Below are positions 13,401 to 46,458 of a stretch of 64,000 nt of DNA, in pieces. The stretch is from a virus: positions 1 through 64,000 of IMG/VR virus record IMGVR_UViG_3300027969_000060, one strand, 5' to 3'. Position 1 is the first letter of the stretch. Every line of letters starts with the position of its first letter. The position numbers and the translations under genes were made by a program. Below the pieces are notes generated by a model. It was not told the DNA's origin and searched no databases. It saw only the letters and a program-made list of their open reading frames with translations.

Positions 13401-13763
13401 ATCTAGCTGGGTAGTGTCAATATCTGCACGTACTACAAAAGCACGATTACTTACACCTAAATAACTATATGCGGCTTGTAATCCGTATTCGTTCTGTTCA
13501 CCAGCATGAATAGGATTGTTATTAGCATCAGTTTTAAATACTGGTGTACCAAAAGTATCTGCTAAATCTTTCTGGCTTGTTAGTAAATAAACCTTGCCAG
13601 CATTTGCTGTTACTGTACCAAGTGCGGTTCCTGTTGCTGAACCATTTTGCTTGCCTTCGGCAGAAGCGACGATAATTAAAGGGGTTGTGCCAGGTGCAGA
13701 CGGTGTATAGAACGATTCGTCTATTACTGTAACTGCTACGCCTGGTGAACTTAATTGAGCCAT
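10413..13763 (-). CDS. gp18: Contractile tail sheath protein (T4 gp18-like) with large internal insertions
   Basis: N-terminal LSSPGVAVTVIDES. C-terminal PWFAPAGTRRG, SSLDRINVARL, YVFEPND, VVCDESNNT and PVKAVEFIYI. Confidence 0.97.
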   Translation of the reverse strand: MAQLSSPGVAVTVIDESFYTPSAPGTTPLIIVASAEGKQNGSATGTALGTVTANAGKVYLLTSQKDLADTFGTPVFKTDANNNPIHAGEQNEYGLQAAYSYLGVSNRAFVVRADIDTTQLDASAEPPAGEPENNTYWFETDATNYGIFQWNSDSQSVSGGQTFTVQYPIVITNASKLSSGAGSAPKASIGAAGDYAIDATTTSITLYFKNTSGEWHEVGSDLWAKSWATVRGTASNPTLNAGSIIINGSTVNIGAATVLGDGVSAGLVKNINDASILGVTAAKVNGRLELYSTGNGNNIVISGSGTGITSVLYQLGLISQASQSGATLTFKAPALNIKPHTDIPNFKRTTEVYNNGNATGSVWVKTTTPNLGANWKVRYYNSASAAWVDSRAPLYADNATALAKLDPTGGGINLALNSLYVKFDDAEQGTNGAGDIMANFKLFYRNGVGATTLKTTSFISGGFAEDDVINFTISESLKGSTELSGPSLAITFTALGDSTDGETLAEEIGLAGLTNILAEYDATSGIVTISHKLGGDFRITDNGATLDSIMAVGTTAHLYDDPSGDATYQVSLWSSTIAGVGFAVATPTEPTTLPADGRLWYNSMIDEVDIMIHNGTTWVGYANFDQTAVGGPATDPAGPFVRASKPTAADRTDGETELAHGDIWVDTSDLENFPKIYKFNYVTKKWVAVDNSDQTTEDGILFADARWSGAGNDIESDSIANLLTYNFLDFDAPDPALYPKGMLLWNLRRSGFNVKRFVRDYIDTTETNYRIGGAGGDPMTEYYPHRWVSEAGNQEDGSGTFGRKAQRKVVVQALQALVNSNQQIRDEESRVFNLIACPGYPELIGEMVSLNYDRGLTAFVVGDTPARLTPDATTLSNWGNNLAGALEDNDGGLVSFDEYLGCFYPWGFTSDNLGNNVVIPPSHMMLRTIALSDNVSYPWFAPAGTRRGGITNATAVGYITSEGEFQSVALNNGQRDTLASVKVNPLTFITGTGLVNYGQYTRAKNASSLDRINVARLVIYLRRQFAQLAKPYVFEPNDKITRDEIKQAAESLLLELVGQRALYDYLVVCDESNNTPSRIDRSELYLDIAIEPVKAVEFIYIPLRLKNTGEIKGLGK

Positions 13764-19386: not shown

Positions 19387-19830
19387 GTGACAGTAACAAA
19401 AGATAAAATTGTTTGTAGCGGTGCGCTATTTTATTCTAGGAATGCCGGTAGGGTATTATTATTACAGAAAGCGCAAGGTAAACACGAGGGCACCTGGGGG
19501 CTTGTAGGCGGTACTACTAACGAAGGTGAAAATCCCTGGCAAGGTTTACAGCGTGAAATTGCTGAAGAAATTGGTTCAATACCTGCTATTATTAAAACCC
19601 TACCATTAGAAACATTTGTATCTAACGATGCTGTTTTTAATTTCCATACCTACTTCTGCATCATTGACAACGAATTTATTCCTATCTTAAGTGATGAGCA
19701 TACTGCATGGGGATGGTTTGACCTAAACTCATTACCTAAACCAGTACATAGTGGGCTAAGTCTTAGTCTGCGTAATAAAATTATACAGACTAAGATTCAA
19801 ACTATCATCGATATCATCGATATTGTTTAA
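19387..19830 (+). CDS. Nudix hydrolase
   Basis: Nudix box G-TTNEG-E-NPWQGLQ-REIAEEIG; later LSDEHTAWGW. Confidence 0.92.
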   Translation: MTVTKDKIVCSGALFYSRNAGRVLLLQKAQGKHEGTWGLVGGTTNEGENPWQGLQREIAEEIGSIPAIIKTLPLETFVSNDAVFNFHTYFCIIDNEFIPILSDEHTAWGWFDLNSLPKPVHSGLSLSLRNKIIQTKIQTIIDIIDIV

Positions 19831-22800
19831 GCCTGTGCTTCACCCCAACGCACAACCAAGTTAGTCGGAATATTTCCAGCACCCGAAGCACGATATACGT
19901 TAATGGCTAATACGTCTGGGCCATTTGGATATGTTCCTCTGCCACCTAATGTAGTATTAGTCAACTCTTTCAACTCTGACAAATCTAGTGAGCTAGTAGT
20001 ACCCGGAGCCGCAATAAACGAAAATACAGTTTCACCCGGTTGTGCGTAAGGCGGTAGACCGAACTGGAATGTAATTGTGCTACCGTTTGAAATGGCTATA
20101 ATTGAACTTTGTGTAAAGTTTATACGATAATATTGTACGCTGGCAAATGATGATAGTGCGCCAATGCTTGCAACTTTTGTACCAGACGGAAACTTAGTTG
20201 GATCAACGATTTCAGTACCAGCAGTTGCACCATAAGTAGCAACTAATGTTTCCCAACTTGCTTTTGTAAAATACAAGAACGAAGTATTAGTTGCAATCAC
20301 CGCTGGTGTAAATGCTATTGTAGAAGCGGCGGTAATAGTACTAGTTGCCGTTTTACTCAATGTTAATGTATAGTACGGAGTAAATGTAAATGTTACCGCA
20401 ACACTGGATGCCTGTGCTGCCAACAATCCAGTATTAAACGTCACTGTATAATAGTTAACACCTGCAAAAGTTTTTACAGCACTAATATTTGAAATTGAAG
20501 TCCCGTTAGCAAACTTAGCAAGGTCATTAACAGTATTACCAACTACCGCTGATCCAATTGGTAATCCAGTCCAACTAGATTGCGTAAAGTTTAATGTTGT
20601 TGCAAGAGATGATGCTTGACCAGTTACAAAGAATGTAGTAGTCGAAGTAGCCAAGTGCGACGATGTTGCGTTTTGGCTCATTGTTAATGTATAATATGAT
20701 AAGCCAGCCGCAATTGCTGGACCTGCAACGTTGGTAACAGTAGTACCTACCGGGTAGTCGGCACTATATATTGCCGAGGTTACAATTCCATTAAGAGCTC
20801 CCCAGCTAGCTTGGGTGACAAATAAAACATTACTACCGCTAATTGTACCGGCAAATGCACCTACAAATTGACTAATACTAACTTGATATGTGCCTACACC
20901 GCCTGATGTCCCAGATAGCTGGGCAGTAATTCGAGTACTTGCGGCTGTTGTTCCGCCAGTTATTGTAGTGTTTGAACTAATGTATCCTGTAACTATACCT
21001 GATACAGTTAGTGTTGTTCCACTAATTGAACAATTACTTGCGGTGGCGCCACCGCCTTGATTAAAAATAGCATTATTAGGAACTGTTACAGTTCCAGTAA
21101 TAAGACCTAATGTTGTTGCAATTGGGGATGGGTTTTCAGTTACGGTTGAAACTGTTGTTCCGCTTGGATATTTTGTTTCACTTGCCGCAACTGAGAATCC
21201 GGTAGTGGCTCCTAAGGTATCCCAGCTGGCCTTATCTAAGTAAAGTATGTTTGAACCAATTGCACTTGCAAAGGCTGCGTTGCTTGGTACTGTTGCTGTT
21301 CCAGTTAATGCCGCAGTAGTTGTGGCAGTACTAGTGGCAGTGGTTGCGCCGCCAGCCCATGATACAGAACCACCAGGGGCTACTTGCGCAAAACTTGGTT
21401 GACCACCTGCTGAACTTCCTGCTAGCCCTGCCCAAGAAATTGCCGTTGGATCTACTGGATAGTTTTGTGGATTTAAAATACCTTCAACAACTAGACCACC
21501 AGTACCTGTATCTGATGTCACTTCGATTGCTTTTAACAACAACTGCGCACGATTAATAAGTTCTCTATCACCTAAGTCGCCAATAATAGCGTTTGACACA
21601 CTTGGTGCTAGTCGAATCAAGAATGCAGTTTGTTTTGTAGTTGATACTTGAATACCGGTAGACGCATAGTTAAACAAATATCCGCGATCTTCGTCAAAGC
21701 GTCCGTCTGTTAACATTGCACTACCCCAGTGACTAATAATTGGACTAATAGTATTGCTGACTAAAATCACACCAGTGTTAACTTCATGAACTGTTGCAGT
21801 ACCTGCACGGAATGTACGCTGGGCACCGCCGACAAAGTTAGTCATTGGGCCTGCTCTAGTACATCCAATTAATGAGTTGCCTGATTTGCCAGTAAACACT
21901 ATTAGTTCGTTATCAACATAGACTACGCCTGATTCATTAGGAAATGCACTTGCATCGTACAATGGGAGTGTTGTTTGAGTAGCAGTTACTGACTGCCGCA
22001 ATTTTCCAATTGCACCTTCATTAATAACTTCGTAACGCACCGGCATGTTACCAGTGCGCATGTAGGCTTCTGTGTTTACGTTTGAGTTACGAATACGATG
22101 GCAGAATACGTAATTACCGTCTGAGCCACGTAACATGTAGTCAATAAATCCAGCGCCGTACCATGACCATTGCATACCGATCATCTGCATTTTTGTAATG
22201 TCAAGATTATAGCCGCTCGGCCCGGTACCGTCTAACCGATCTAAATTAAATTCGCTTTGGTTAATAATTAAATCTTGCACTAGACAAAGTTTACCGCTTA
22301 CGCAATTGCTTGCGCCGCGATAGTCAGGAGTAACTGACATTGATGTTTGACTATATACGTTAGATACAACGTGAGTCATGCCTTTAATAACAATGCGGTC
22401 GCCTGCTTTACATTGATCACGGAAACGTGTGTTTACACCAGTTAATACGTTGCTGTCTTTAGCAATACTTGCCACGCCAGCTAACTGTAAGGTACTTGAA
22501 CGACGACCAACAGCTAATTGTGTTCCATCGTATTGCCAGAACATACCGTTTTGATCGTCATATGTTCCAGCGCGGACCGTTGCACCGTGCCACCCAAGGA
22601 TTGACATCTGTGCCGCAGTAGTAATTGTAGCATATACATTAGCTAATGTTGTTTGTGCTTGAACTTTAAATTGACGTTCTGTAACAATGTCAGTGATTGT
22701 ATATTCGCCGTTGTAGCCAGCTGTGTCAACGCCAATGATTCTAACTCGGCCGCCAACTTGGCACCCGTGATCAACGTCGTCAGTTGTAAACGTAATGTAA

Positions 22801-25800
22801 GAACCAACTGCTGTCCCTGTAGCACCTGCTGATTGCAAACTATAGCTTGGCGCAAATAGTGCGCCCGTAGTATACATAATACCTTTACCAGATTGGTAAC
22901 GAATATATTTCTTACTCATACGAATTGCTTGTGCGCCATGCTGTGGGCCACCAGTACCTAACTGTACACCACCGTCATACGGCCTATGAATAAAGTAACT
23001 GTCCGGTCTTGAATAAACAGTACCTACTAAACTAGTTCCAGTATCAATAGTACCGGTTGTCCTAGCAGTGTATCGAACAACGGTTGAGCTTGGGACACTT
23101 TCTACATAAAAAGGTCCTTTGGCCAGTGCATGATTAGTGCCGGATGATGTTATATCAACTAGTACAGTTGCGCCTGGTACCAGTCCGTGAGCTGAGGAAA
23201 ATGTTAATTGTAATGTTGCAATAGCACTTGTGCTAATACTTGTTGCATCTGGTATACTTGCTATTGTAGATTCACTTAACGATACCGCTGAATAAAAGTC
23301 AACGGCAGCACCAAGAACAGCAGTTCCACTTGCAGTAGCAGATGTCACTATTCCAGCGGCGGTACTAGTAACTGTAACGGTTACATTGTTTGTTGGTGTT
23401 GCGCCATCAAAGTTTGCACCAGCAAATAGAATTTTGTCATTAATTTCGTATCCAGTACCAGCTATATTAGGTACCGCAGTAGTGTATGCTCCGCCTGCTC
23501 GAGTAATATCAAAAGATGCATTTATACCTGGAGCAATTTTAGTTGCTGACAAACTAGTAAATGCCGCATCAACAGATGATGGAGTTCCTGCTGTATTAAA
23601 TGCAAGAATGCCGCCGCCAAAAGAATCTGCGCTAGTAACAGTTAATGTTAGGTCATTTCCTGGAGTTGTTCCTCCAAGTTGAGTACCGTAAATTTTAATA
23701 ATTTCACCGAATGAAAAAGTTGAACCTGGATTATTAATAATAACATCATACGTACCGCTCAACGTGCTAACATCAAATGTTGCATTAATGCCAGATGCAC
23801 TAGTTGTATCAAATGCTAGTGCAGAGTATGATCTCTCTCCACTAACACTGGTACCCGAAACAACATCTACAACGTTAATTAGTCCGCCTACAAAATTTCC
23901 AGTACCTGTAATCGAAGCCGCATAAATTGATCCAACGCCTGCACCAGAGCCTGTTAGATTATTAAACAAGTTAATACCGTTACTAAGATCAACATCAACA
24001 ACAGTAATTGTTAAATTATTTGCAGGTGTTGTGCCACCCAAACTTGTACCTGCGATAGTAATAACATCTCCAGGAGTGTAACCTGTACCCGGAGTGGTAA
24101 CTGTTAGTGCGTATAGGGCTCCAGTGCGTACTACAGTAAATTGAGCACCTGTGCCCGGAGTTCCCGTGGCAGATGTTTGTAATACTCCAGTATATGTTCT
24201 TGTAACTGTGGTCACAGTGACCACAGCATTATTAGCTGGGGCAGTACCACCTAAGTTAGTACCTAGTAGTGTAACAGTTTCGCCAACAGCATAGCCAGTT
24301 CCATTTGAATGAATAGCTAGAGAATATACATTAGTAGGGCTAATTAGAATGTCAAATGCCGCGCCAGTTCCCGATGCACTAGCAGTTCCACTAACAGTTG
24401 AAAAGGTATCTAAGTTAGTTATAGAAGTAATCTTAAGGATTAAATCGTTTGCAGGTGTTGTGCCGCCTAAGTCAGAGCCTAACAATTTAATTCTTGAATT
24501 TAGTACATAGTTGGTGCCGGGACTAGTTACTGTAATATTTGAATAATTTCCAGCTACTCGATCAACACTGAAAACTGCACCAGCTCCTGCTGGAATAATA
24601 TTTGTTCCTGTTTTATTTAAATAGGTTTGTGTTGCACCGCCCCTTACTGAAGTCAACGGTTGTGTAAATATAATAGTATTGCCAATTATGCCGCTTACAA
24701 AAACAGCAGTGCCAGTGCCATTGTCAATAGCCATTCCTTCTAATATTCCAGCTGTATCTACAAAAGAAACAGATGTATCGCCAATCGCTGCCGGAATGCT
24801 AACACTTGCTGTTACTATACCACCAGTACCAACAGTACCCGTTATCTGGGTACCTGGATTAATTCCAGTAGCAGTAATTGGAGCACCAAGTGAAGGTAAT
24901 GCGCCAGTAACTGCAATTTGATCAGTGCCTGATGTAGTTATATATTTTGTTGTAAATGATCCGGTAATACCGTTACTAAACACACTAACAACCGGTTGTC
25001 CAATACTTGCGCCTGTATAAAACGCACCTTTACGTAATTGCGTATAGGTTGTTGCAAGAACTTGGCCATTGCTTGTTCCTACTTTAGCTGTTGAGTAGTA
25101 TGAAAATGTGGTTGGGCTACCTATTGAAATTACAATAAACGTGCCCTCTGCACGACTAAATCCGCTAATGGTATTTGCTAATGCACGAATAGTAATAGGA
25201 GTACCTGCACTAAATCCGTGTGCTCCTGATGTAGTAACTGTGATTAATGAGTTGCCGATACCGGCAGTGCCTGCAGACGCATCTGTTACTACAGTTACTA
25301 CTGCGGTGTCAGATCCTGGAATTTCATATACTGATGGGTATCCACGAGCAACGCCAATCGCTTGCCACTTAGTTGGCTGTAAGCCGTACTCAAAGTCAGC
25401 GTCAAGCATGGACTGTGGCTGTGCAACACGCATACGTTCAATAGCGTCTGTGCCAAAGTCATACGGTCTAGTTTTTTGTTCTTCTGCTTCAATAAAAATT
25501 TGTATATCGTCTGTACTAGAACAGGTACTTGTATCGGCTTGTAATTCTAATACAGTGATGTAATCGGTAACATTAATATATGCTGGATAGTCATCATCTT
25601 GATCAACTCCATTACTATTATGGGGTGAATCAAACGTTGCAGTTGCTCCTAAATTACCGTCACTAAAATTGTAAATAATTTGATTGTTTACACTGTTGGT
25701 AATTAATAATAGTTTATCAAGTGGGTAGTAACCTTGTAATTTAATACTAGTCACGCCGCCTTGAACTGCAGGTAAACTACTTAGACCATTTTGAATAACA

Positions 25801-27686
25801 GAAGTAACAACTCCAGATAGTGTAGTGATTCTTGCACGACTGCCAGCTTCACCAGCAATGCCGCTTAATAATACTCTTGGTTCAGTGTTTTGTAAAGCAG
25901 TATAACTTGTAACAAGGTCAATAATATCAGCCTTATTAGTTTCAATAGCTGTCTTAGCTGTTTGTAATCCGGCAGTAGCCCATGTTACATCTGGAAACGT
26001 TTCGACTATGCTAGTAAGATATGCAAGGGCGGCTGCTTTTGAACCAGAATTAATAACATCTGCAGTAATTTGAACTAGACCCTGGCATGATGTTGCTGTG
26101 CCAGCATTGGCATTGTTACCGGTAGTAATTTGTGTTTCAGTATTGGGACTAGCTCCAGTTGTTGTTTTAGTAACAGTTTGTCCTTGAACCACTTGGCCAA
26201 TAATTGCCTTTAATCTTCCATAGGCTGCAACAGTTACTGCCTTATGTGAAGCAAGGATTCCTGGGGAGCCGTCTGCAAAACTATAGAAAAAGAATTTTGA
26301 TTGAGAATATGTAGCTTGATTGCTGTCATATAAAATATCATAGCAAATTGCATCAACTGCATAGTGTACATCTCTAGTACACTTTGCAGGATCGTGATCA
26401 GCTGCCGGATATGTTGCTGCCACCCATGCGTTAACTTCTGCCGCTAAGAACTCTCTATTGGCAATAATTTTATCTTTGGCAGCTATTTGACTTGCAGTTG
26501 CGCTGGTTGGATTAGGAAATACCAATGGATCTGCCGCTGTACGACCGTTTTGTATGATATTAACCACTTCAGCAAAGAAAGTATTCGATCTGCTAAGAGC
26601 AGTAGCATCAGAAGATACCGCAGTTAGATTTGAAACGGCATTACCTGCTGCCAGTATACTAGTAATAACATTACTACTAGTTTCTAAAGAATTGTATTCT
26701 GCTAGACCTAAAAATACTTGGTTATAATTTGTGCCTAAGGCAACATCATATCTTACGCCATCTAGTAAGTATCCAATGTCTCTGGCACACTTGCCGCCGT
26801 CAAATATTACATTGTTAATTAAATTACGGATGAAAGTATGGGTAGCAATCTCTGGTTTTCGATCGCCGTCAACTTGCGGTATTTCTCCGTTCCAATACTT
26901 GCTACTCATTAATCTTGTACGAACATTTCCACCGTATCTTAAATCGTGTGTGTATGCCTTAACAACATATCCTATGTCGCGCTCGCACTTTGGTCCATCA
27001 TACGTATATCCTGGGAAATTATATACTGAATATACTGTTGTAGGTAATGTTGATAAACCACCATTGATAACATTACTAATGGTATTTTGACAGCCGGCCA
27101 TTTGTGCTATTGCGCCTGCTTCGGCGGCACCGCCTGTGGTATATTGAATCCGTGTATTTCCTACGCTAACCGGACTTAGTGTAATGGCATTTAGTACAAA
27201 CCCTATAATAATATTCCACAAGCGTGTTTGGATTGCAACTTCTACCGCAGGAGCTATAATTTGAATAACTCCGCTTAGATAATATTGGCTTGCTACAAAA
27301 GTTAGACGTTCGTTCCCGCCGTATCTAATATCATAGATAATAGCATCGATAAGGTATCCCATATCTCGCTTACATTTTTCAATTTCTGTAGTTCCGTAGG
27401 TATAGTTATAAAATGTTCCGCCAGCACTGGCAGCGGCAACTTGGGCAGTAGTCCATGCACTCACTTCGTCAATGATAAACAGTTTATTATTTGTTAGTAG
27501 AGTAACAGCTTTAGGATAAAGATTGTTGGCACTATCAACAATAACTTGTTGTGCAATATAAGCGTTTGCTTCTTTTTTAATAAAATCTAAATTAGCATCT
27601 AACAAAGAATATGCATTGGGGTACGCATTACTTGCGTTTGACACTCCCGGTTGAAATACATAATTTGCTATTCTTTTCTTTGACAT
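19827..27686 (-). CDS. Giant virion structural/fibre protein (2619 aa) with four phycobiliprotein-like helical modules and beta-rich repeats
   Basis: Late promoter motif and GGAG RBS. Thr/Ser/Gly/Ala-rich. Four KCxRD modules (C105, C234, C300, C436) and five [10 protein letters not shown]-type repeats. Confidence 0.7.
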   Translation of the reverse strand: [2619 protein letters not shown]

Positions 27687-29301: not shown

Positions 29302-30303
29302 ATGACCCAACGAGCAAAAGCATTTTTTATCAACGGTGGCGCTGGCAGAGTAGTATGTTCAATCCCTGCACTTGAAAAGTATGCTGAAGAACACGGCAAC
29401 GATTTTATCATTGTTTGCGAAGGCCCAACAGATTTTTATAAGGGTCATCCAATTTTACACGAACGAGCCTACGACCATTGGCACAAAAACCTCTTTGAAG
29501 ACAAGCTAATTAATATGGATTTAGTCAGTCCAGAACCATACAGAGTTTGGGAATACTACAATCAAAAATGTTCAATTGCACAGGCATATGATATTGCAAT
29601 TAATAATAAAGGTATAAGAGACTTACCAAAGCCAACTATGAAACTTTCCAACGAAGAAATGTTTACTGGTTTTAATGTACTGGCTGAAGTTAAAGAAAAG
29701 ACCAAGAAAGATAAAGTAATAGTGTTCCAGCCGTTTGGTCGGGGCGTACAGTCACAAAACAATGTTATTTTTGATCCGTCTGCTCGCAGTTTTGAAGGTC
29801 AAAGTGTTATTAATATTGTTAAAGAACTACAGAAAAAATATGCTGTGATTCTTATGAGTGAACTGGGCATTGATTTCCAAAAACATGGATGTAAAGATCC
29901 CGTAGCACATCCTCAAGGTATTAATTTGCGCCAGTGGGCTGGGGTTATTGCCAATGCAGATTACTTCTTAGGTTGTGATTCTGTGGGGCAACACCTAGCA
30001 TACGCACTAGATAAGCCTGCTACAATTGTAGTAGGATCTACGTTTGCAATTAATGTGTCATTTCCAGATTACGAAAAGTTTGATGTATTAGATATGGGTG
30101 GTAGTATTCGTCGATACAGTCCAATACGTATTACCATGGACGAAGTTGCAGATCGAGGTAACGACGGTATTATGTTAATGAATGACAAAGTCGAAGAAGC
30201 TATTGTAAAATCAGTAGTTGACGGCGTTAAAAAGTTTAATAATACTAATAAGGCTCAACCAATAACAGCTACTACCCCTGCGGCTCCTGCTTGCGGACAC
30301 TAA
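29302..30303 (+). CDS. Glycosyltransferase, GT9 (heptosyltransferase)-like GT-B fold
   Basis: N-terminal GGAGRVVCSIPAL, central VFQPFG, C-terminal LRQWAGVIANADYFLGCDSVGQHLAYALDKP (GT9 signature DSxxxHLAxALxxP). Confidence 0.75.
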   Translation: MTQRAKAFFINGGAGRVVCSIPALEKYAEEHGNDFIIVCEGPTDFYKGHPILHERAYDHWHKNLFEDKLINMDLVSPEPYRVWEYYNQKCSIAQAYDIAINNKGIRDLPKPTMKLSNEEMFTGFNVLAEVKEKTKKDKVIVFQPFGRGVQSQNNVIFDPSARSFEGQSVINIVKELQKKYAVILMSELGIDFQKHGCKDPVAHPQGINLRQWAGVIANADYFLGCDSVGQHLAYALDKPATIVVGSTFAINVSFPDYEKFDVLDMGGSIRRYSPIRITMDEVADRGNDGIMLMNDKVEEAIVKSVVDGVKKFNNTNKAQPITATTPAAPACGH

Positions 30304-30304
30304 T

Positions 30305-31225
30305 ATGGCCAAACGGGTATTTGTTTTTGGTTGTAGTTATACATGTTATAGTTGGCCAACTTGGGCTAACATGCTGGAACTTGAATATGGTCACATTGAA
30401 AACTGGGGACTACCTGGGCTTGGCAATCGTGCTATTGCCGAACGACTTGCAGAATGTCATGCTAAAAATACATTTACTGCCGATGACCTAGTTATTGTAC
30501 AATGGTCTGGTCATTTACGAAATGATTGGTGGCATCAAGAACCAGTATTAAATCGTACACGAGGGTGGAAAACCTATGGTAGTATTTTTAACTATCATAA
30601 TGATAAACTCTATGATAAAAAATGGATCGACACCTTTTTTTACGAACCTGCATTTTTAATGCATACACTTAACAATATTGTGTTATCTCAGGCATTGTTA
30701 AAATCTACAGGTTGCCAATGGTACATGACCAGCATGAGTGATATTCGTAATATGGGTTCAGATATGCGAGTTAATACTACATACGGAGAGCGCAGTCCTC
30801 TTATTGATAAGCACAAATCTCAAGGTTCATACACTGCATGGGAAATGGTACCCACTCTTAAAATATATGACAAATCGATATGGCAAGATCACAAAGATCA
30901 CTGGTTAATGCCTTTAGAACTATTCTGTCAATCACATGTTGAATTAACTTTTGACTTTTTAGATAAAACAAATGTCCATTTCCTTGATATACACCCCAGT
31001 GTCGCCCAACATAGATTATGGTTAGAGCAAGAATTAGGTAGCAAATTAGGTATAAAAGATGTTACACTAGCACTAGCACAAGACTTAGTAGATGGTATTA
31101 ATATAGTACATAAAAAATTTAAGTATGATAAGTCAGCATTTGAATATGCATTAGCAAGAAAACAGGGATTCCCTCAAGCGGCAATTGATAAAATGAATTG
31201 GCCAGGAAGCCCGTTAGGATTTTAA
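30305..31225 (+). CDS. SGNH/GDSL-like hydrolase or acyltransferase
   Basis: Block I FGCSYT, block II NWGLPGLGN, DLVIVQWS, and C-terminal DIHP. Confidence 0.6.
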   Translation: MAKRVFVFGCSYTCYSWPTWANMLELEYGHIENWGLPGLGNRAIAERLAECHAKNTFTADDLVIVQWSGHLRNDWWHQEPVLNRTRGWKTYGSIFNYHNDKLYDKKWIDTFFYEPAFLMHTLNNIVLSQALLKSTGCQWYMTSMSDIRNMGSDMRVNTTYGERSPLIDKHKSQGSYTAWEMVPTLKIYDKSIWQDHKDHWLMPLELFCQSHVELTFDFLDKTNVHFLDIHPSVAQHRLWLEQELGSKLGIKDVTLALAQDLVDGINIVHKKFKYDKSAFEYALARKQGFPQAAIDKMNWPGSPLGF

Positions 31226-31234
31226 AGGATAAAC

Positions 31235-33043
31235 ATGAAAGAACTTAGAAAAGATATATGGATTGCAGGTATTACCCGTGGGCATAATAGTAGTGTATGC
31301 TTGTTAAAAAACGGTGAAATCATTTTTAGTATAGAAGAAGAGCGCCTATCTAGAGCGAAGTATGACGGTGGGCCATATGCCGCTATGCTTAAAATTCTTG
31401 AATATACTGATAAGTTAGACTATATTGCTATTGCACATACACAGTCTTTATCAGAAACTGCTGGTAAAGTTGATTTTTCAGGCGAAGATGTCTATACCGG
31501 ACTTGCAAGAAAATTAGGATTAATTAGTCGGAAAGAAAATCCATTTAAACATCCACAAGTTATTGACATGAGTTCAGTACATCATAAATTACATGCCGCA
31601 TGTGCATTTTATCGCAGTGGATTTAAAGAAGCAGTGGGTGTTATTGTTGACGGCGCTGGTACATTTGTACCATTGCAAATTAGCAATGATGATCACCAGT
31701 GGACTGGATGGGAAACTGAATCAGTTTTCGATTGTCAATATCCAGCATGGTTTAAGACTGTTTATAAGCATATTGGCACACGTGGGCCACATCCTGGTGT
31801 TCTTGCTACAGAATTTGATAGTAGCATTTACCAAGAACCGGGACAAACGCACGAAGCATTAGTAACTGATCGTGCTGGTATTACTAAAGTATACGAAGCG
31901 GTAACACAATACTGCGGGTGGGCGCCAATCGAAGCTGGCAAAACTATGGGACTATTTCCATACGGTGGCCCTAACGACGCTATTCCGCCACTATTTGACG
32001 AGACAACAATTGCTCCATTGCCAAATAGAAATATAATTATTCCTACTTACCCTAATGGCGCGGTAGTTAACATTGGATTATATGATGCTCTTAAAGATTA
32101 CGGTGATGGCGGTGATGTAACACTACTACAAAATCGTAGAGATTTAGCATATGCTTGCCAAACTCAAACCCAAGCTCAAGTTGTAAAGTTAATTCGTAAA
32201 GCAGTTGCAATGACTGGACAAAAGAATGTTGTTATTAGCGGTGGCTATGGTTTAAATTGTGTTGCTAACTATCATTATTTAGAAGCATTAAAGGATGACG
32301 GTATTAACATTTATGTCGAGCCAATTAGTAACGATGCTGGCACTGCTATCGGCGCCGCTATTATGATGTATAAGAATTTAGTTCCAGCAGGTGACATTGA
32401 TTATACTAAAAATAGACTATATTTAGGATTTCAATATAATTATACCGATGCATATTTACAAAAATATGTTGAGTCGCACGGTGTTGAGATCACAGATGCA
32501 ACACACGAAGACGTAGTTGAATTATTATTGAATAAAAACATTGTTAGTATGTTCCAAGGTCGTAGTGAAAACGGGCCACGTGCATTAGGTAATCGTAGTA
32601 TATTGTTTAATCCCACGTATATTGACGGCAAGGATTTTGTAAACCAAGTTAAAAATAGAGAATATTTCCGACCGTTTGCAGGTTCTATTATGCAGGATCA
32701 TGTGCATGAATGGTTTGATTTACGAGGTATGGAAGATAGTCCTTATATGATGTATGCTGTTAACTGCCAACCTGGCATCGAAGAAAAGATTCCTGCTATT
32801 ATTCACATAGATGGAACTTGTCGTATTCAAACAGTTACAGAAGAACAGAACAAACACTATTATGATTTGATCAAAGTATTCCATAGTCGTACAGGAGTAC
32901 CTATCTTGTTTAATACCAGCTTTAACCTAGGTGGTGATCCGTTAGTAGAAACATTAGATGATGCAATTGATACATTATCTAGATGTAACATTGAATATTT
33001 GTATTTGCCAGAATACAGTAAATTAATTAAAGTAGCTAACTAA
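31235..33043 (+). CDS. O-carbamoyltransferase (NodU/CmcH/TobZ family)
   Basis: EEERLSRAK, HHKLHA, DGAG, AGKTMGL, SGGYGLNCVAN, DAGTAIGAA, GPRALGNRS, REYFRPFA, DGTCRIQTV and NTSFN motifs. Confidence 0.95.
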   Translation: MKELRKDIWIAGITRGHNSSVCLLKNGEIIFSIEEERLSRAKYDGGPYAAMLKILEYTDKLDYIAIAHTQSLSETAGKVDFSGEDVYTGLARKLGLISRKENPFKHPQVIDMSSVHHKLHAACAFYRSGFKEAVGVIVDGAGTFVPLQISNDDHQWTGWETESVFDCQYPAWFKTVYKHIGTRGPHPGVLATEFDSSIYQEPGQTHEALVTDRAGITKVYEAVTQYCGWAPIEAGKTMGLFPYGGPNDAIPPLFDETTIAPLPNRNIIIPTYPNGAVVNIGLYDALKDYGDGGDVTLLQNRRDLAYACQTQTQAQVVKLIRKAVAMTGQKNVVISGGYGLNCVANYHYLEALKDDGINIYVEPISNDAGTAIGAAIMMYKNLVPAGDIDYTKNRLYLGFQYNYTDAYLQKYVESHGVEITDATHEDVVELLLNKNIVSMFQGRSENGPRALGNRSILFNPTYIDGKDFVNQVKNREYFRPFAGSIMQDHVHEWFDLRGMEDSPYMMYAVNCQPGIEEKIPAIIHIDGTCRIQTVTEEQNKHYYDLIKVFHSRTGVPILFNTSFNLGGDPLVETLDDAIDTLSRCNIEYLYLPEYSKLIKVAN

Positions 33044-37773: not shown

Positions 37774-40700
37774 TTATCCTAAAAGTAAGAAGTCCATTGC
37801 TACTGGCAACCCGTTAATTCCGCCAGTGAAGTTCATTGTTGCTGTTACGTTAATCTGCACACCAGTAGTAGTACTAATACTATTACCAGCAATGTAGATA
37901 ACACCAGCCGTTAGTGTATTTACGTTCAATGCACTTGATCCGCCACCAATTTGGCTACTAATATATGATTTAATAGCTTTTTGCGTTGGAACAATGTTGT
38001 CACTGTTGGCTGTAAAATACTGGTCTGTTGAGAAACTAGTAATAGTTGCTCCAGATCCGCCTAGTGCCACAGAACCCAGTGTTAGTGAGTTCAAACCTGC
38101 TAGATTAAATGCGTCAGCATTAATACTTGCTACACCCGTTGCTTGCTGAACACTAAACAAAGTACCAACGCGGAAGTTACCGTCTTGGTCTGTACTTGTG
38201 TAGAACACGCGACCACCACCGTTACCTACTGTTTCATTAGCTGGAATAGCTGGCTGTGTCGGGGTTCCTGGATAGTTAGTAGTAGTGGTGTTACCCGTTC
38301 CAATACTTAAAAAGTCATGTCCAGTTAAACGAACTTGACTGTATTTTAATCTCAAGGTAATCAATGTACCGTGAGTAGGATTATTAGAAGCTGTTAATGC
38401 TGGACTTATTTGGAAACGAGCACTATATGGAGTTGAGCCGCCTGCCGCAGTCCATCCCTGATAACTATTTCTATCGGTACCTAAGAAGTTATTTACTGCA
38501 ACTAGTTTATAATAAGTTCCATTAAGTGCAAATTGTACATTTGATCCAGGTGTTGGTGAACTTGGTAAATTATATACGTTGACATAATATCCTGTTTGAT
38601 ATATGTCTGCGTACCCGTTACCAGTTACTGTTGCTGTAGCAGTAGCATACTGGCTACCTCTGTTTGTAAACGTTGGGCTAGCCAATGCTCCGTTACCAAT
38701 ACGAATCTGCCAAGTTGCTGCCGAAGTATAGTTAGGATCAATTAAAGTCATAGTTGGCGTTACAGCATAACCACTGCCTGGCTCTATAATTCTAACTTCA
38801 CTAATTGCACCGTTAGATACCTTAACGCGAGCTTGTGTTGTCGCGCCCATTACTACACTATTAGCGACTAATGATGTAGTACGTACAAACGCCCACTGCG
38901 GTGTTCGTGTTGGATTACCGTAGGCAAGCGCAGTCCAAGTAGCGGCTGTGCTTAGAGCTTGTTGATACCATGTATATCCATTGTCAGAAGTTACAATAGT
39001 AGCAGTTGATGTTGTTCCTGCAATAGCAACAAATAATCCAGCACCGTATCTAACTTTAGACCAGTTACTAGCTTGGATTGTTCCTTGTGCAGATTGTACC
39101 CATGTTATACCGTCTTTACTGTATGCAGAAATTGTGCTACCTGATGCAACTGCAACAAATGTGCCATCGCCAAATGCAACACTAGACCAAGTTGCTGATG
39201 TTGGTAGTGAACGAGTGGTCCATGATAGTCCATCTGAACTTGAAGCAGCCTGTGTGCCGCCGCTGGCAATTGCTACATAAACGCCGTTACCATAAGCAAC
39301 GCCGGTCCATGTTGTATTTGCAGGCAATGCCGCAGTATTTGACCAACTTGTACCGTTAGTACTATAGGCCGCTGTTGCTGTTCCACTAGCAACCGCCATA
39401 AACTGTCCGTTACCGTAGGTAATTGCTGACCAGTTAGCGTTTGTAAGAAGTCCGCCAGTTGTCCATGCTACTGTTGGGTCGGTTGTGTTTGCTGTAGCTG
39501 TACCATTAGATACTGCTACCCACCGTCCTGCACCATAAGCAATTGCAGTCCATGATGCACTTGCAATGGCTCCGCCTGCTATAAATGTGGTTCCATTAGC
39601 ACTAATTTGTGTGCCTGTGCCACTTGTCGGAATTGCAACAAAGTATCCACCAGATCCTACGCCATCATATGTAAAGTTTTGGATAGCTCCTGCAGGTGAA
39701 CTAACATTATTAACTGTAAGTACAACATTATTTGCACTTGTTCCGCCTAGGTTAGTACCTAAGATTGTTAATGTGTCACCTACAGTATATCCTGTTCCTG
39801 CACCACTTACTGATACAGTATAAGCAAGTCCAGATTTTACTACGTTAAATGTAGCACTAGATCCTGTGCCGCCACTAACAGTAATACTGCTGAAGGTAGT
39901 AATCCAATCGCCGTAGGCCATATCGGCCCATGTGCCACTTGTTGAAGTAGTAGCAGTAGCAGTATATGTTGGACTGGTAAATACCACTCTTGGTTCAATG
40001 ATATATGCTGTGGTTAAATCTAATGAAGATGAAATGGTTGTACCTGGTACTATATGATCCCATCCCGGTTGATGAATTAACACACTTTGGCCTGTTGTAG
40101 CCGACACTGTTTGAGCAGTTGTTGAACTTGATAGTGTACCTACGCTGATAGTTGTGCCGCCAGGAATAACGCCTATAGCATAATATGTTGTAAATGCTAA
40201 TAACCCGCCAATTGCCGAGCTTAATATAACTGGCATAGTATTGTACGCAGGAGTTGCTCTAGACAAGGTTAGCGTATTTTGTGTACCAGTAGTTGCACCA
40301 CTAGTTGTTTGGCTAATACTAACTTGCCAAGTACTTGCAGTTGTTCCTGTACCTGTTAAGTTAGCAACAATATATGTACCAGCTGTGGTTGTTCCACCTG
40401 TAACAAACATACCTGGAACAATTGTTCCTACGCTGACAGCAGATACTGTTAATGTTGTGCCACTAATTCCCGAACTTACAAATGTCGTAGACGATGTTGT
40501 TGTCGCTGTTACAGTAGTGTAAGGGAAGCTTTCTTTGGCAACTGAGCCAAACTTAGTACCTGAGTTATAATTTATAAAGTAACCTTGTTGGCCAACACCT
40601 GAACCACCAGTGACCATTACTCGCATACCAACATAGGCTGCACTAATTGCCGAATCAGTTGCTGCCAGTGTAATTCCTAGCGCCGTTCCGCCCTGTGCCA

Positions 40701-43700
40701 CGTTAGTAATAGATGCATAATTAGCACCGTTACTTAACAATCTTCCTTCAAATACTGCGCCGTCACGGAATTCATCACCTACTGCTGTGGCTCCAAAACC
40801 TGTTCCACCAATATTTCCCACATAACTAGCAGTTGAATAATTTGTTCCTGCATTAGTAAACTCAAGTCGATAGATTTGATTAACGCTGTCAGTTAATGCA
40901 AGACCAATTTGTGCATGTGTGTAACGATTGTTTACCGATGCATAAATTGGAGTTTCGTAAGTATCAACACCTTCAGCTAACGAACCATATGTGCCATATG
41001 AGTTATTACCGTTAGTAGCTCGCATTTTGCCGCCAAGCTCTGCTAAGTAGCCTGCATATGAATAGTAGGCAAACACAGAAACAAGTTCTGTTAATGCATT
41101 TGAACCAGTACACCATACTCCAATACCATCGCTGATAATAGTAGTATAGTCGTTAGCAACAATAGATTTATTTCCGCCTGCATGTAGTGATGAATCAATT
41201 TTCATTCCTATACAACCAGTACCAAATAATGTTAAGTTTTGAGTATAGGGTGAGCGAGTTGAAATCCAAGCATTATAATCTGTTGGGCCATATCCTGGAT
41301 CTAAGCTAGAATAGGCACCTGCTGTTGGTCTACGGGTTCCATATATATTAGGTGCGCCTATAGTACCGGTTAATCCGGTAACTGTCATGTTACGTAACCC
41401 CGTTGAATTACGTAGATAGAACATGTCAGACTGAATAGAGCCGCTAACTGCATTTTTATAGCTAACAATAGATCGTAAAGACTTATAATTACCAAGATAA
41501 TTTATGTCATATATCCAGCCGTTGACATATTCTGTCATATCGCGTTGGCATGCTGCCTGACTAAACTGGTATCGAACAGTCATTGATCCTGATCCGTTAT
41601 TAATAATTAACGGACTTGTGCCGACCGATGTGCTAGCTACAGTAAATTCTGTTCCCGACGGCACTGTTAATACATAGTAAGTACTGCCTAATATTACACC
41701 TCCGAGCAACGAACCGCCTGTAAATGTTACAGGATCACCTATAGTGAAATTGTGTGCAGAACTTGTTGTAAATCTGCCGGTTGATTGAGTTGTAGTTGTT
41801 ACTGTGCCGCCGTAACTTTGAGTTACCCAAGCCGTTGCTTCGTTAGCTAAGAATGCTGTATTAGCTCTTAAAATTTCAACACCCTTAATAGTACTTAACA
41901 CATTATTATATGTGTTTGTACCAGCGTATTCAAATCCACCACCTGCGGTAGCAGTTAATAAACTAGAAGTATTTGTTAAAGTAATTGGAGTTGCACTGCC
42001 AAAGGTCGATGTTACTTGAATTGTAGTTGCGTCAACAATAGAAATAATCCAATAAGTCTGATTAACACTGATGCCGCCTGTTGAGCCGTTAAACACAATT
42101 GGCATTCCTACCACCATACCTGCAGTCGATCCAACTGTAATATTTCCACCAACAGCGGTAGCTGAAGCAGTTGTTGTTATAGTACCAGCAATTGATAGAA
42201 TCATATCGTCAATAATTGTACCGATCTGTGTGGCACTGCCGTAGGCTGCAATTTGTCTAGCTTTTTGTGCAATAAAATTAACAGCACCAATTTCTGCTGT
42301 TAACTGATTATTAATAACATACTGAGCACTAGTTGTTGCTCTGTAATATGCCATACCGGCTTTAACAGAGTTAAAGTTTGTACCAAACACTAGGTCGTAA
42401 CTTAATGCGTCAACAATATATCCTGTATCTCGTGAACACGTTGCCGAGTTAAAGTTCATTGATTGATAGAACTTCTGGACCCATGCTACTGTATCAGCTT
42501 GAATTTCTGATCGTGCCGCTTGCAATGCATTGTATCCGTTTTGTAATGCGGTTGAAGACAACGCAATGGCCGCTGTTGGTGCGACAGTTGCAGGTGCTGT
42601 ACCATTAGTAATCCAGTCAATTATATCTTGGATACGAGCTTGTGCAAATGTTGCCGCACCTGCTGAACCTGCTGTGCCAGCTGTGGTTTGTGTTGGGTTA
42701 GCACCACTTACTGCAACCGGGCTTCCGCTCGAACCAACTGTTTGGCTGGCACTAACTGTCCATGTTGAACCGGAACCAGCGCCGCCAGCAATGTAACCAG
42801 TAATATAAGTACCGGCTGTAGATCCAACCATAGTTAGAACATGTCCAACCATGATAGTTCCAGTAACTGCTGAACTGATAGTTAATGTAGTTCCACTGAT
42901 GTAACCAGTTGTACTAAATGTAGTGTTAGGACTGTTAACTGTAGGTGTAGTCTTTAAAACAATGTTTGAAATCATTGTTTTTAAAGTTGTGTATGCGGCT
43001 AATGTTGCTGTCTTTTCTGTTGACGCAATATTTAACGCAGAACTTGTAAAATATGAACTACCAGCAATTAATGTCTGGGTATTGCCGCCATAGGTCATAT
43101 CATATTGTAATGCATCTAACAAGTAACCAATATCACGTTGGCAGGTTGCTACGTTAATTGCATTGTATACTGATAGATAATTGTTAAACAAATACTGGCT
43201 GATATAAGTTTTAATATATTGATAGTTTTGAACAACCTGTGCCTTACCATCACCGTATCCTGTTAAGAATCCAACGTTATATCCTGTTGGATTTGTAAAT
43301 GTAAATGCTGGCGCCGCTGTGATTGTATTTTGTAAAATATTTCTAATAGTTGCGCCGTTAGTTAATACTGACGAAACTGCCGCAGTACTACCAACATCAC
43401 CCACGGGCAATGTAGTAACTTGAGCGGTTGTGTTTCCTGTAGTAGGAGTAACTGTACCGTTAGCAACAAGCGTTGGAATGATCGCTTTCATGCGAGTCAA
43501 TACTGAAATCGTTTTTGGTTTGTCGTTTACTAAGTTTGTAACTGCACCTGCTGGCTGTATTACACTTGAACGAAGTTCATCACCAACTACCGCAGTATTT
43601 CTTGGAACAACTATAGGTAAAATTTCTAAATATGTTCCTGTCTTAACACTAATTGTTGTTCCTGGATTAATTACAGATGGAATTGCCGATGTTGTTCCTG

Positions 43701-46458
43701 CGCTTAGTCCTGTTGTAATAATTGACACTAAGGTTGTCAGTGTAGTCGTAGTACCTGACTCAGAAGTTAGGCTAGTATCTATAATTTGCTCTGCTTGGTT
43801 AGCCAGTAATACTCCGTTTAGTGTTTGATAATTTGCTACAGGTGCAGAATTAACTAGTACCTTATTTGAAACAGTTACTAGATAATTTAGTGCGCCAACA
43901 AACGCAGTAATATCATATGCATAAACACCGCTAATATAAGCATTACCTGCACTGGTAAAATATGCTAATGCCGCAGATGTTGTTTTAAATGTTCCGCTAT
44001 GACTTATATCAAAAATCAATGCATCAAGAATAATACCTGCATCGCGTTCTGTCTTAGATGAACTATACACATACGAACCAGTCATTGAGCCTGAACCAGC
44101 AGTTAATGTTCTACGAGTTACATCTGCATAATTATTTTTAATACCAAATGTTGTAGTGTTAGGAATATCAAATATGTAGTAGGTTACGCCGGCAGTTACA
44201 CCGCCAGTTGTTCCCGTAAAGCTAATTGGCATGCCAACATATAAACCTGCAGTTGAATTACATGTGAATACTGTTGTTGATGCAGATGCTACTGTTGTAG
44301 TATTTGTATACTGAACAAAATTATTAACCTCTTTAGTTATAAATTGTTTATTTTTAGCTAGTAATGCGGCAGCATTGGGATTCAAATAGCCGTCCTCAAC
44401 TTGTTTTGCCGCATAGCGAACAGTTCTCCAGGGTTTATCCATAGTTAACCCTTGGCCGTTTCCAAGAACGTCAACACCGTTCAATGCAACATACACTACA
44501 TTATTAATAACACCAAAATAAGACCATGCCGGAGTATTGTTGTTTACACGTAGTACTTGTCCATCAGTGCCGATTGGTAGGCGAGTTGGGCCAGCACCGC
44601 CATAATAAATTGTATCACCTTGGGTTGTCAATATAGAAGTAATCGAACCAACTGACATTACGTTCCAGTAAGTACCTGTTGTGTCGTTATCAGGGCGGTT
44701 GCCGTTTGATCCGGTATGAGCTAATATACAAATATAAGTGTTAACACCCATCAGTACTGCATCACCTAATACATAATCAACACCAGTTTTCCATGATACT
44801 GCAACCCCAGCAACTGACACTGCGGTTATAGCCCCACTAGGTGCAGTGACTGTGATAATAATATCATTAGCTGGAGTAATACCGCCAACTTGAGTACCTA
44901 ATATTTTAATAGTGTTACTAGTTGCATATCCAGATCCTGTAGCATTGACTGTAACTGTATATTTTGTGTTAGACAACGCAACATCGAATGTTGCGCTAGT
45001 GCCTGTACCGACAATGTTTGTGCCACTTAGGCCTGTAAATGTTTGGCCCGTTGCCGCCCATTTAACACCACTATTTAAGCGTGACCAGTAGGTTAGGTTT
45101 GGTGGGGTATTGCCGGTGTGGTCAAGGATTGCTACATAGGTGTAACCGTTTAGTCTTACTACCTGGCCAACTTTATATGCAGTTGCATTTGACCAGTCGC
45201 CCTGGAAACTAAATCCAGTAGTAAATAAATCCCAATCAGAAATATAAGCAGTAGGAGTTTTATTAGTATTATTTGTTTTAGCTACGTATGCATATCCACC
45301 ATAGGATACTATGTCACCTGGTTGGTAAACTTCTGAGCTTGACCAACTATTTTCAAATTCTAATCCGCCAACAAATATAACCCAGTTTGCTTCTGCAAAT
45401 GTACCGGAAGATGTATGGTCAGTTGTACAAATCCAAAGGTCTGCTCCAAATTTTACAATATCGTTTTTGCGATAGCGAACAGCGGCACCTGTGATTGTAA
45501 TTTGTGCTCCAACACTGCCTGTTGTTTGTGAAAAGTTTACAGTATATGTTCCGGTAGTTCCTGGGAATGTACCAGTTAACAATTCAGTAATAGTAGTTCC
45601 AGAGGTTACTCCAGCACCAGATAATACTTGACCAATAGATAAATGTCCAGATGATACTGCACTAACAGTTAATGTTGTTCCAGAAATATATCCAGTAACG
45701 CTGGCGCCTGATGACCAGTAACCTAAATATTTAATACCTTTATGGAACGGATCCCATAGCCCCTGATCTGCTTCTAAACCTGATGCAAGAGTGGCGGCAG
45801 ATTGATGGCCTGTATTACATACGTAAGTGATGCCACCGTATAAAATAACATCGTTTTGTTTGTAACGTGTATTAATAGTCCACTGGCCAATCCAATCAAA
45901 TCCTTTGGCGTAAATATCCCATTTACTTAGGTCTTGTTCGAGACCATCAGAGTCAGTATTGTTAGTAGCTGAACTTGTATGCCCAGTATTACAGATATAA
46001 CTGATACCACCGTATCTAACAACGTCATCTGTTTTGTATCGAGTACCGGTAGTCCAGTCGTTCTTCCAGTCTAAACTTGCGGCAAATAAATCCCATTTAT
46101 TTTGATCTGCTTCCAAGCCCGCAGTTACTTCTGGGCTAGTACCAGATGTTGCTAGTACATTGCTTTGATGTCCGGTGTTACATAAGTAAACTCTGCCGCC
46201 AAATCGTACTAGGTCGTTAATCTTGTAATATGTATCAGTATCCCAATCGCCCTTCCAGCTTGTGCCGTCAGCAATTTGGTTCCAACGTGTCGGACCATGG
46301 TTTAGGTCGACGTAGAAATCTGCATTGGCAGTATGTCCTGCTACGCAAACAAACGTCTTACCACCGTATCTTACAACATCGTCTTTTACGTATGTTGTAG
46401 ATGCACTCCAGTTGTTTTTCCAAACAAAGCGGATTCTACCTAGTTTAAATTCAGCCAT
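37774..46458 (-). CDS. Giant virion fibre/spike protein (2894 aa): CBM-like repeats, beta-helix, four phycobiliprotein-like modules, propeller-like repeats
   Basis: W-x4-Y-xx-D-x-V-x-YGG-xx-Y-x-C-xxx-H repeats; VYVA-x2-G-x-D...PWRTVRYA beta-helix start; xRD modules at T803, C1106, C1341 and C1637; W-x2-IAYG repeats. Confidence 0.75.

Follow-up and report, generated by a model that had tools for sequence, protein, structure and literature searches.

Phycobiliprotein-like globin modules inserted into a giant tail-fibre protein of a virus with jumbo-phage affinity

To our knowledge, the sole role known for phycobiliproteins (PBPs) is in light harvesting, as antenna subunits of cyanobacteria, red algae, and cryptophytes. 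They are free subunits of 160 amino acids (aa). ApcE, the core-membrane linker of the phycobilisome, has a single PBP-type domain, with its Cys at another position, and attaches its bilin without a lyase. Globin-fold bilin binders also occur outside the phycobilisome, namely the photocobilins and the bilin biosynthesis-associated globins (BBAGs) of non-photosynthetic bacteria. Here we describe PBP-like modules in viral structural proteins. The window analyzed comprises the 64,000 nucleotides at positions 1 to 64,000 of the IMG/VR virus record IMGVR_UViG_3300027969_000060. The modules under study lie in P0001, a 2894-aa tail-fibre open reading frame (ORF) on the minus strand (37774..46458), and a first set lies in P0003, a 2619-aa virion protein (19827-27686). 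An earlier note, made from the sequence alone, had described four modules in the fibre as a second set and counted eight copies in the window. Literature searches returned no paper on PBP-like domains in virion proteins.

A hidden Markov model (HMM) profile was built from the eight window modules and searched against 177,635 distinct Protein Data Bank (PDB) sequences. All 36 matches at E ≤ 10 were PBP alpha chains (best E 5.2e-5), aligned with the module Cys on Cys84. The module HMM proposed in the earlier note thus retrieved PBPs and almost nothing else from the PDB sequences. With a second profile of 114 rows, mostly modules of contigs from IMG/VR and from metagenome-assembled genomes (MAGs), 38 of 41 matches to PDB sequences were PBPs. 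Profile-profile comparison (hhalign) of this second profile with an alignment of 23 real PBPs (cpcA, cpcB, cpeA, and cpeB genes from metagenomes) gave a probability of 92.1% and an E-value of 6.1e-7 over 101 columns, again with Cys on Cys84. The beta-subunit motif quoted in the earlier note, AACLRDMEIILRY, is present in real sequences. Single modules of P0003 were matched by different PBP resources: PF00502 of Pfam on aa 59-128 (E 0.003, 18 bits), phycocyanin alpha chains in a phmmer search with aa 175-254, and NCBIfam TIGR01338 (phycocyanin alpha) on aa 298-377 (model positions 81-159, E 1.2e-5). Jointly, these matches span PBP positions 26-159. The scores of window modules against PF00502 were 18.0 and 15.9 bits, below the curated cut-off of 22.2, and the family is precomputed on 7 of 120 listed relatives.

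Module 3 of P0001 was modelled with AlphaFold2 without templates, which predicted six helices (predicted local distance difference test score, pLDDT, 90.1; predicted template modelling score 0.85). The top 50 Foldseek matches to this model in the PDB were all PBPs (template modelling scores 0.66-0.79). In VIA, the top eight were PBP or ApcE chains (Z 13.6-15.6, root-mean-square deviation 1.8-3.1, 121-129 residues), including allophycocyanin with Z 15.6 and a deviation of 2.2 over 125 residues; model residues 1-129 were aligned with chain residues 28-159. The runners-up were photocobilins (Z 12.9-13.4), for which no sequence-level match to the modules was found, and heme globin sensors (≤12). 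The template-free AlphaFold model of module 1, the Thr variant described below, had 34 orthologues in its input and a pLDDT of 92.6, and its top eight VIA matches were likewise PBP or ApcE chains (Z 11.1-13.6). Both models exhibit the PBP-type globin fold (helices A/B, E, F, G, and H). The X-Y hairpin of the alpha/beta monomer is not in the models: module 3 aligns from chain residue 28 and module 1 from 17-19. With a repeat period that peaks at only 140-165 aa, there is no room for it. We conclude from the profiles and the predicted structures that modules and PBPs are homologous and that the hairpin is absent from the modules.

Alternatively, the modules could be an unrelated helical repeat that converged on a short motif of phycocyanin alpha. 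The HMM scores against PBPs are modest (17-27 bits) and did not rise with a deeper profile, and the Pfam scores below the cut-off (18 vs. 22.2 bits) point the same way. We nevertheless consider convergence highly improbable: the profile-profile match extends over 101 columns, different modules match different parts of PBPs, and the models made without templates align with PBPs across 121-129 residues at Z-scores as high as 15.6, better than with any other fold.

In sequence, CpcA (TIGR01338) was the best match to the modules, and in structure, allophycocyanin and phycoerythrin chains. Modules and PBPs have the globin-type fold from PBP residue ~28 to 159 in common. The module motif K-C-x-R-D-x-G-Y aligns to Lys83-Cys84-x-Arg86-Asp87 of PBPs, and a G-G turn follows the helix in both. 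Unlike PBPs, the modules have no X-Y hairpin and hence no alpha/beta pairing surface, a shorter loop ahead of the Cys, an Asp in place of the invariant Arg93, and an Asp60 and a Tyr76 that are invariant in the modules only. In virion proteins of 2000-7000 aa the modules form tandem or inserted domains, whereas PBPs are separate subunits. Because of the insertion in a tail fibre and the missing pairing hairpin, the context argues against assembly of the modules into (alpha-beta)3 discs. In ApcE, the PB domain is, as in the modules, a PBP-type domain within a larger multi-domain protein, and VIA aligned it with Z 14.8 to module 3 and 12.7 (chain 4xxi_A) to module 1. ApcE has a large insertion in the helix B-E loop, the loop that holds a beta barrel in modules 1 and 4; we regard this as a likeness of architecture. 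ApcE resides in the phycobilisome core, and the modules in a virion protein. Photocobilins differ from the virion modules in being cellular soluble proteins, and their Z-scores are lower than those of PBPs.

All four motifs quoted in the earlier note were found in P0001 at the residues given there, T803, C1106, C1341, and C1637 (codons 44050-44052, 43141-43143, 42436-42438, and 41548-41550). A six-frame regular-expression search of the 64-kb window for the motif matched P0001 and P0003 only. With the 114-row profile, the best domain E-values for modules 1-4 of P0001 were 3e-19, 1e-30, 6e-36, and 3e-6, and the remaining ORFs of the window gave no match. These include P0002, the module-free 1973-aa paralogue upstream of P0001 (46513..52434, minus strand), which was used for comparison to define the insert boundaries. 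The two proteins are 36% identical over 1548 aligned columns, with most of P0002 covered. Their alignment places all modules in two inserts, in agreement with the earlier view of modules inserted into the larger fibre and absent from its paralogue. Insert 1, delimited by motif positions and the P0001/P0002 comparison, is module 1 (P0001 aa 688-933; 43660..44397, minus strand). P0002 has about 3 residues at this site, and the flanks are shared by both proteins (W-K/R-T-V-K/R-Y-A...QV before, I-x-x-K-T-G-T-Y after). Insert 2 (aa 971-1677; 41428..43548, minus strand) takes the place of a 173-aa segment of the paralogue (P0002 aa 574-746) that consists of other small beta domains. The claim of nothing at the first site and different beta-modules at the second therefore holds for P0002. 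A lone weak match of the eight-module profile to P0002 aa 725-780 was traced to beta-strand sequence within one row of that profile and dismissed as an artefact.

All module features of P0001 are on the minus strand. Module 1 (aa 690-940; 43639..44391) was delineated by HMM domains at 690-734 and 794-940 and is complete as a globin domain of the PBP type, except that Thr803 stands where the Cys would be. A Cys-less half-module (aa 975-1060; 43279..43536) comprises the C-terminal helices only (profile positions 109-191, E 6.8e-10). Module 2 (aa 1068-1195 plus the last helix at 1247-1297; 42568..43257) carries Cys1106 (E 1.2e-30 and 2e-5), and the uninterrupted module 3 (aa 1293-1440; 42139..42582) carries Cys1341 (E 5.8e-36). 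Module 4 (aa 1511-1555 and 1630-1677; 41428..41928), with Cys1637 (E 1.2e-3 and 2.7e-6), stops one helix downstream of the Cys helix and is split by a beta domain. This domain of ~78 aa interrupts both modules 1 and 4, and in the model of module 1 it forms a beta barrel at residues 45-121, between the B-like helix and the motif-bearing, E-like helix. A small beta domain precedes the last helix of module 2. The four modules of the earlier note are thus real, but module 4 is truncated, modules 1 and 4 are interrupted, and the additional half-module had been overlooked. The first set, at the N-terminus of P0003 (aa 52-572; 25971..27533, minus strand), has four modules with Cys105, 234, 300, and 436.

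At a threshold of E ≤ 1e-3, a HMMER search with the eight-module profile against 1.84 billion representative proteins gave 1349 clusters (at 50% identity), 493 of them with E ≤ 1e-30. Proteins with modules reach 6382 aa, a single protein can have as many as 34 matched stretches, and all named relatives are annotated as "hypothetical protein". Other modules are mostly 20-30% identical to module 3 (about 25%). Across 1599 modules from 150 proteins, the Cys was conserved in 94%, the Arg in 95%, and the Asp in 98%, together with a further Asp at profile position 60 (99%) and a Tyr at position 76 (96%); free variation of Cys, Arg, and Asp among homologues was thus not what was found. There is one Cys per module. 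The chromophore motif Cys84-x-Arg86-Asp87 is kept in seven of the eight window copies, as stated in the earlier note, the exception being module 1 with its Thr. Among 108 orthologues of module 1, the position is occupied by Cys (59), Thr (40), Ala (5), or Ile (2), and the relatives that exceed 60% identity all have Thr or Ala. Judging from these orthologues, the Cys is dispensable at module 1.

Modules and bilin-related genes were compared in 18 reference cyanophages, 17 T4-like phages and the podovirus P-SSP7. Modules were found in 13 of them (2-11 copies) and were missing from P-SSM2, S-SM2, S-SSM7, P-SSM4, and P-SSP7. The bilin lyase gene cpeT was present in 11 of the 13 module-bearing phages and in one of the five module-free phages (Fisher one-sided p 0.022, or 0.05 without the podovirus; uncorrected for phylogeny). 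In S-PM2, the gene for a 3792-aa module protein follows 1.4 kb downstream of cpeT. An S-type lyase (PF09367) was found neither in the 18 reference cyanophages nor in S-CREM1, so a Cys84-specific lyase that travels with the modules finds no support; cluster C phages, which carry cpcV (PMC10665884), lie outside this sample. The presence of modules was also compared with published adsorption phenotypes. S-PM2 adsorbs in a light-dependent way that does not rely on photosynthesis; in darkness, P-HM1 and P-HM2 fail to adsorb, and P-SSM2 and P-SSP7 succeed (PMC6628666; PMC2984593; PMC7112961). The module counts are 9 in S-PM2, 4 each in P-HM1 and P-HM2, and 0 in P-SSM2 and P-SSP7. All five phages therefore agree with an association of modules and light-dependent adsorption, but they represent three or four independent lineages.

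Our tentative explanation, which we place a little short of an even chance, is that the modules, as divergent PBP-type globin domains, bind bilin via the Cys. The modules are equivalent to PBP residues ~28-159 and sit in two loops of the fibre body. Their family, large and restricted to viruses, consists of 140-165-aa repeats from which giant baseplate and fibre proteins of cyanophages are built, and it has kept the chromophore triad. The homology, the fold, the conserved residues, the insertion sites, and the distribution are findings of this analysis, from which bilin binding and any response to light are inferred. In favour of pigment binding are the relationship to PBPs in sequence and fold, the conservation of Cys, Arg, and Asp at ~25% identity, which points to selection on the site, the restriction of the family to cyanophages and marine single-cell viruses among phage records, and the links to cpeT and to light-dependent adsorption. 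As the fibre folds in the bilin-rich cyanobacterial cell, the Cys-bearing modules may each take up a linear tetrapyrrole, by autocatalytic attachment as in ApcE or with the aid of a phage or host lyase, and the virion fibre would thereby become a chromoprotein. Modules with Thr for Cys would bind the pigment non-covalently or remain empty. The bound bilin would stabilize the module and could make the conformation of the fibre light-responsive.

Several observations weigh against bilin binding. We know of no report of pigmented cyanophage virions. Asp60 and Tyr76 are conserved in the modules and not in PBPs, which suggests module-specific constraints and a remodelled site. According to hhalign, the loop ahead of the Cys helix is ~9 residues shorter than in PBPs, and part of the bilin cover would therefore be missing. 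In 45 of the 108 module 1 orthologues, Thr or Ala stands in for the Cys (47 with Ile included). Arg-Asp was found in all 106 pattern-matching orthologues, although the pattern itself demands Arg-Asp; since the pair stays while the Cys changes, Arg and Asp may be kept for structural reasons. The co-encoding of bilin biosynthesis genes, which the earlier note had proposed to check, was not borne out. Heme oxygenase and bilin reductase genes (ho1, pebS/pcyA) showed no association with modules in the 18 phages, P-SSM2 and S-SSM7 have both genes and no module, and the lyase gene cpeT alone co-occurs. No gene for heme oxygenase, ferredoxin-dependent bilin reductase, CpeT, CpeS, or psbA was found in the 109-kb record, which is ~30% complete. 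The core genes of the present virus resemble those of PA5oct-type jumbo phages of Proteobacteria, not those of T4-like cyanophages. The correlations with adsorption phenotype and cpeT rest on few, related genomes. Furthermore, T-type lyases such as CpeT have a known role at the Cys153-type site, not at Cys84 (PMC10452541).

Much of this would also fit PBP-derived modules that carry no chromophore and act as rigid helical spacers or hinges, with Cys, Arg, Asp, Asp60, and Tyr76 holding the helix packing. Copy numbers from 0 to 11 per genome and the many matched stretches per protein are typical of spacer repeats. Truncated and half modules exist, beta domains are inserted within modules, and at module 1 the Cys gives way to Thr or Ala with Arg-Asp unchanged. 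The invariant residues specific to the modules, the shortened pre-Cys loop, and bilin synthesis genes unlinked to modules are consistent with this explanation as well. We consider it a serious possibility, if a somewhat doubtful one. A lone Cys kept in 94% of modules at ~25% identity is hard to explain by packing alone in extracellular proteins, in which Ala, Ser, Thr, or Val would usually alternate with it. Moreover, the kept residues are exactly the bilin-contact triad of PBPs, the family is limited to phages of bilin-rich hosts, and a bilin lyase gene co-occurs with it.

It is unlikely that the Cys/Arg/Asp/Asp/Tyr site serves other chemistry, such as binding of heme, a metal, or a host surface molecule, or a redox-sensitive or cross-linking lock of the fibre. 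The globin fold accommodates many kinds of ligand, the next-best structures are photocobilins and heme globin sensors (Z 9-13), and the near-invariant Asp60 and Tyr76, which PBPs do not have, suggest a remodelled site. On the other hand, the module profile has no conserved heme-ligating His, the sequence similarity is specific to PBPs and not to globins, and a single Cys per module leaves no partner for an intramodule disulfide.

If bilin is bound, a further step may be considered, which we regard as rather doubtful: baseplate and fibre proteins of cyanophages would be bilin chromoproteins and the virion's own photoreceptor, in which absorbed light shifts the fibre conformation and gates attachment. 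If true, this would explain the light-dependent adsorption of S-PM2, P-HM1, and P-HM2, provide a phage-encoded substrate for the widespread phage cpeT lyase, and put the same device, in this window, on jumbo phages of a lineage that has no relation to the classical T4-like cyanophages. In any case, the modules place the PBP fold in a new context, a large virus-only branch in the phage attachment apparatus with the pigment site intact. Two questions become directly testable, the light-only adsorption of some cyanophages and the presence of a bilin lyase gene in most T4-like cyanophages; how Prochlorococcus phages profit from phage bilin genes is described as unclear in PMC2984593. If the modules were empty, they would still be a clear reuse of a host photosynthesis protein as a virion building block. 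New in this window are the PA5oct-like core genes and the replacement of the module 1 Cys by Thr or Ala.

The distribution of the family was explored with tblastn, degenerate motif patterns, and a tree. Three module queries matched 105, 53, and 251 of 50,697 phage records, all of them Synechococcus or Prochlorococcus phages, "Cyanophage" records, or marine single-cell viruses; a megablast search of the module region against phage records gave no match. A degenerate motif pattern, scanned against 596 Gb of prokaryote genomes (GTDB), occurred in only 15 stretches; all of these belong to aquatic MAG contigs, which we read as mis-binned viral contigs. A pattern scan of IMG/VR gave at least 120 contigs with the module. 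In a quick IQ-TREE maximum-likelihood search, made without allophycocyanin sequences, a long branch (Shimodaira-Hasegawa-like approximate likelihood-ratio test 100) parted all viral modules from alpha plus beta PBPs, so the modules do not descend from any single subunit class. The eight window modules were scattered among modules of other contigs and are therefore old, position-specific modules, not recent tandem copies. The earlier note had called the module a mobile, exchangeable domain. In the sense of insertion and shuffling this is supported, as modules are missing from the paralogue, occur in different giant structural proteins, and differ in copy number among reference genomes (0 to 11). 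Signs of a self-mobile element are lacking.

P0001 was assigned as a tail fibre from the ORF list, its match to phrog_9851 "tail fiber protein" (E 8e-162), and Pfam. The PHROG tail-fibre family matches both P0001 and P0002 (E about 1e-160), and both have seven CBM_5_12 repeats at the N-terminus. The flanks of the modules had been read in the earlier note as a beta-helix region; Pfam gave only these repeats on P0001 and no other flank domain, and strands follow the insert in the AlphaFold model of module 1. The module-free scaffold of P0002 occurs also in Pelagibacter phage Mosig and in cyanophages. By query coverage, the top match of P0002 among phage isolates was Pelagibacter phage Mosig EXVC030M (61% covered, 30.6% identity). 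As cyanophages rank below it, such fibre scaffolds seem to be common to marine myoviruses of unrelated hosts.

The barrel within modules 1 and 4 (~78 aa; window 44065-44304, aa ~719-798, and 41560-41800) occupies the loop between the B-like and E-like helices. Its model resembles domain 2 of EF-Tu, the FCCH domain of ubiquitin E1, and phage tail-tube barrels (Z 6-8), and a barrel unit of the G-G-x-x-x-G-x-x-Y-Y-V type recurs in P0002. The second small beta domain, of ~65 aa, which precedes the last helix of module 2 (window 42700-42910, P0001 aa ~1185-1250), is repeated in P0001 (aa ~257 and ~1997), P0002, and P0003.

The whole record is a contig of 108,991 bp with a CheckV completeness of 30%, so that the full genome would measure about 360 kb. 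The nearest counterparts of its terminase and tail sheath belong to Pseudomonas phage PA5oct (53% and 41%), Sinorhizobium phage Phosso, and 355-kb Erwinia phages, not to Kyanoviridae. These genes with jumbo-phage affinity lie at window 3539-5131 and 10413-13763 and at record 65500-73332. The fibres of this phage have modules and scaffold in common with cyanophages. The contigs on which orthologues of P0001 were found are as long as 378 kb, and eight measure 312-378 kb. Because the modules occur in no other cultured phage than cyanophages, our guess is that the host is a cyanobacterium. The rest of the record contains T4-type capsid and portal genes and no further modules. Another giant ORF (>4613 aa; record 90162 to beyond 104000), also free of PBP-like modules, lies outside the window and is followed by a subtilase-family gene.

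Within the 3792-aa "short tail fiber protein" coding sequence of S-PM2 (NC_006820, 165928-177267), 16 transfer RNA features are annotated under one locus tag. The reading frame is open and without stops, and the features look like an annotation coordinate error. In the present window, a plus-strand block at 29302-33043 lies amid the minus-strand fibre genes and includes a Nol/NodU-type carbamoyltransferase (phrog_1601, E 1e-169).

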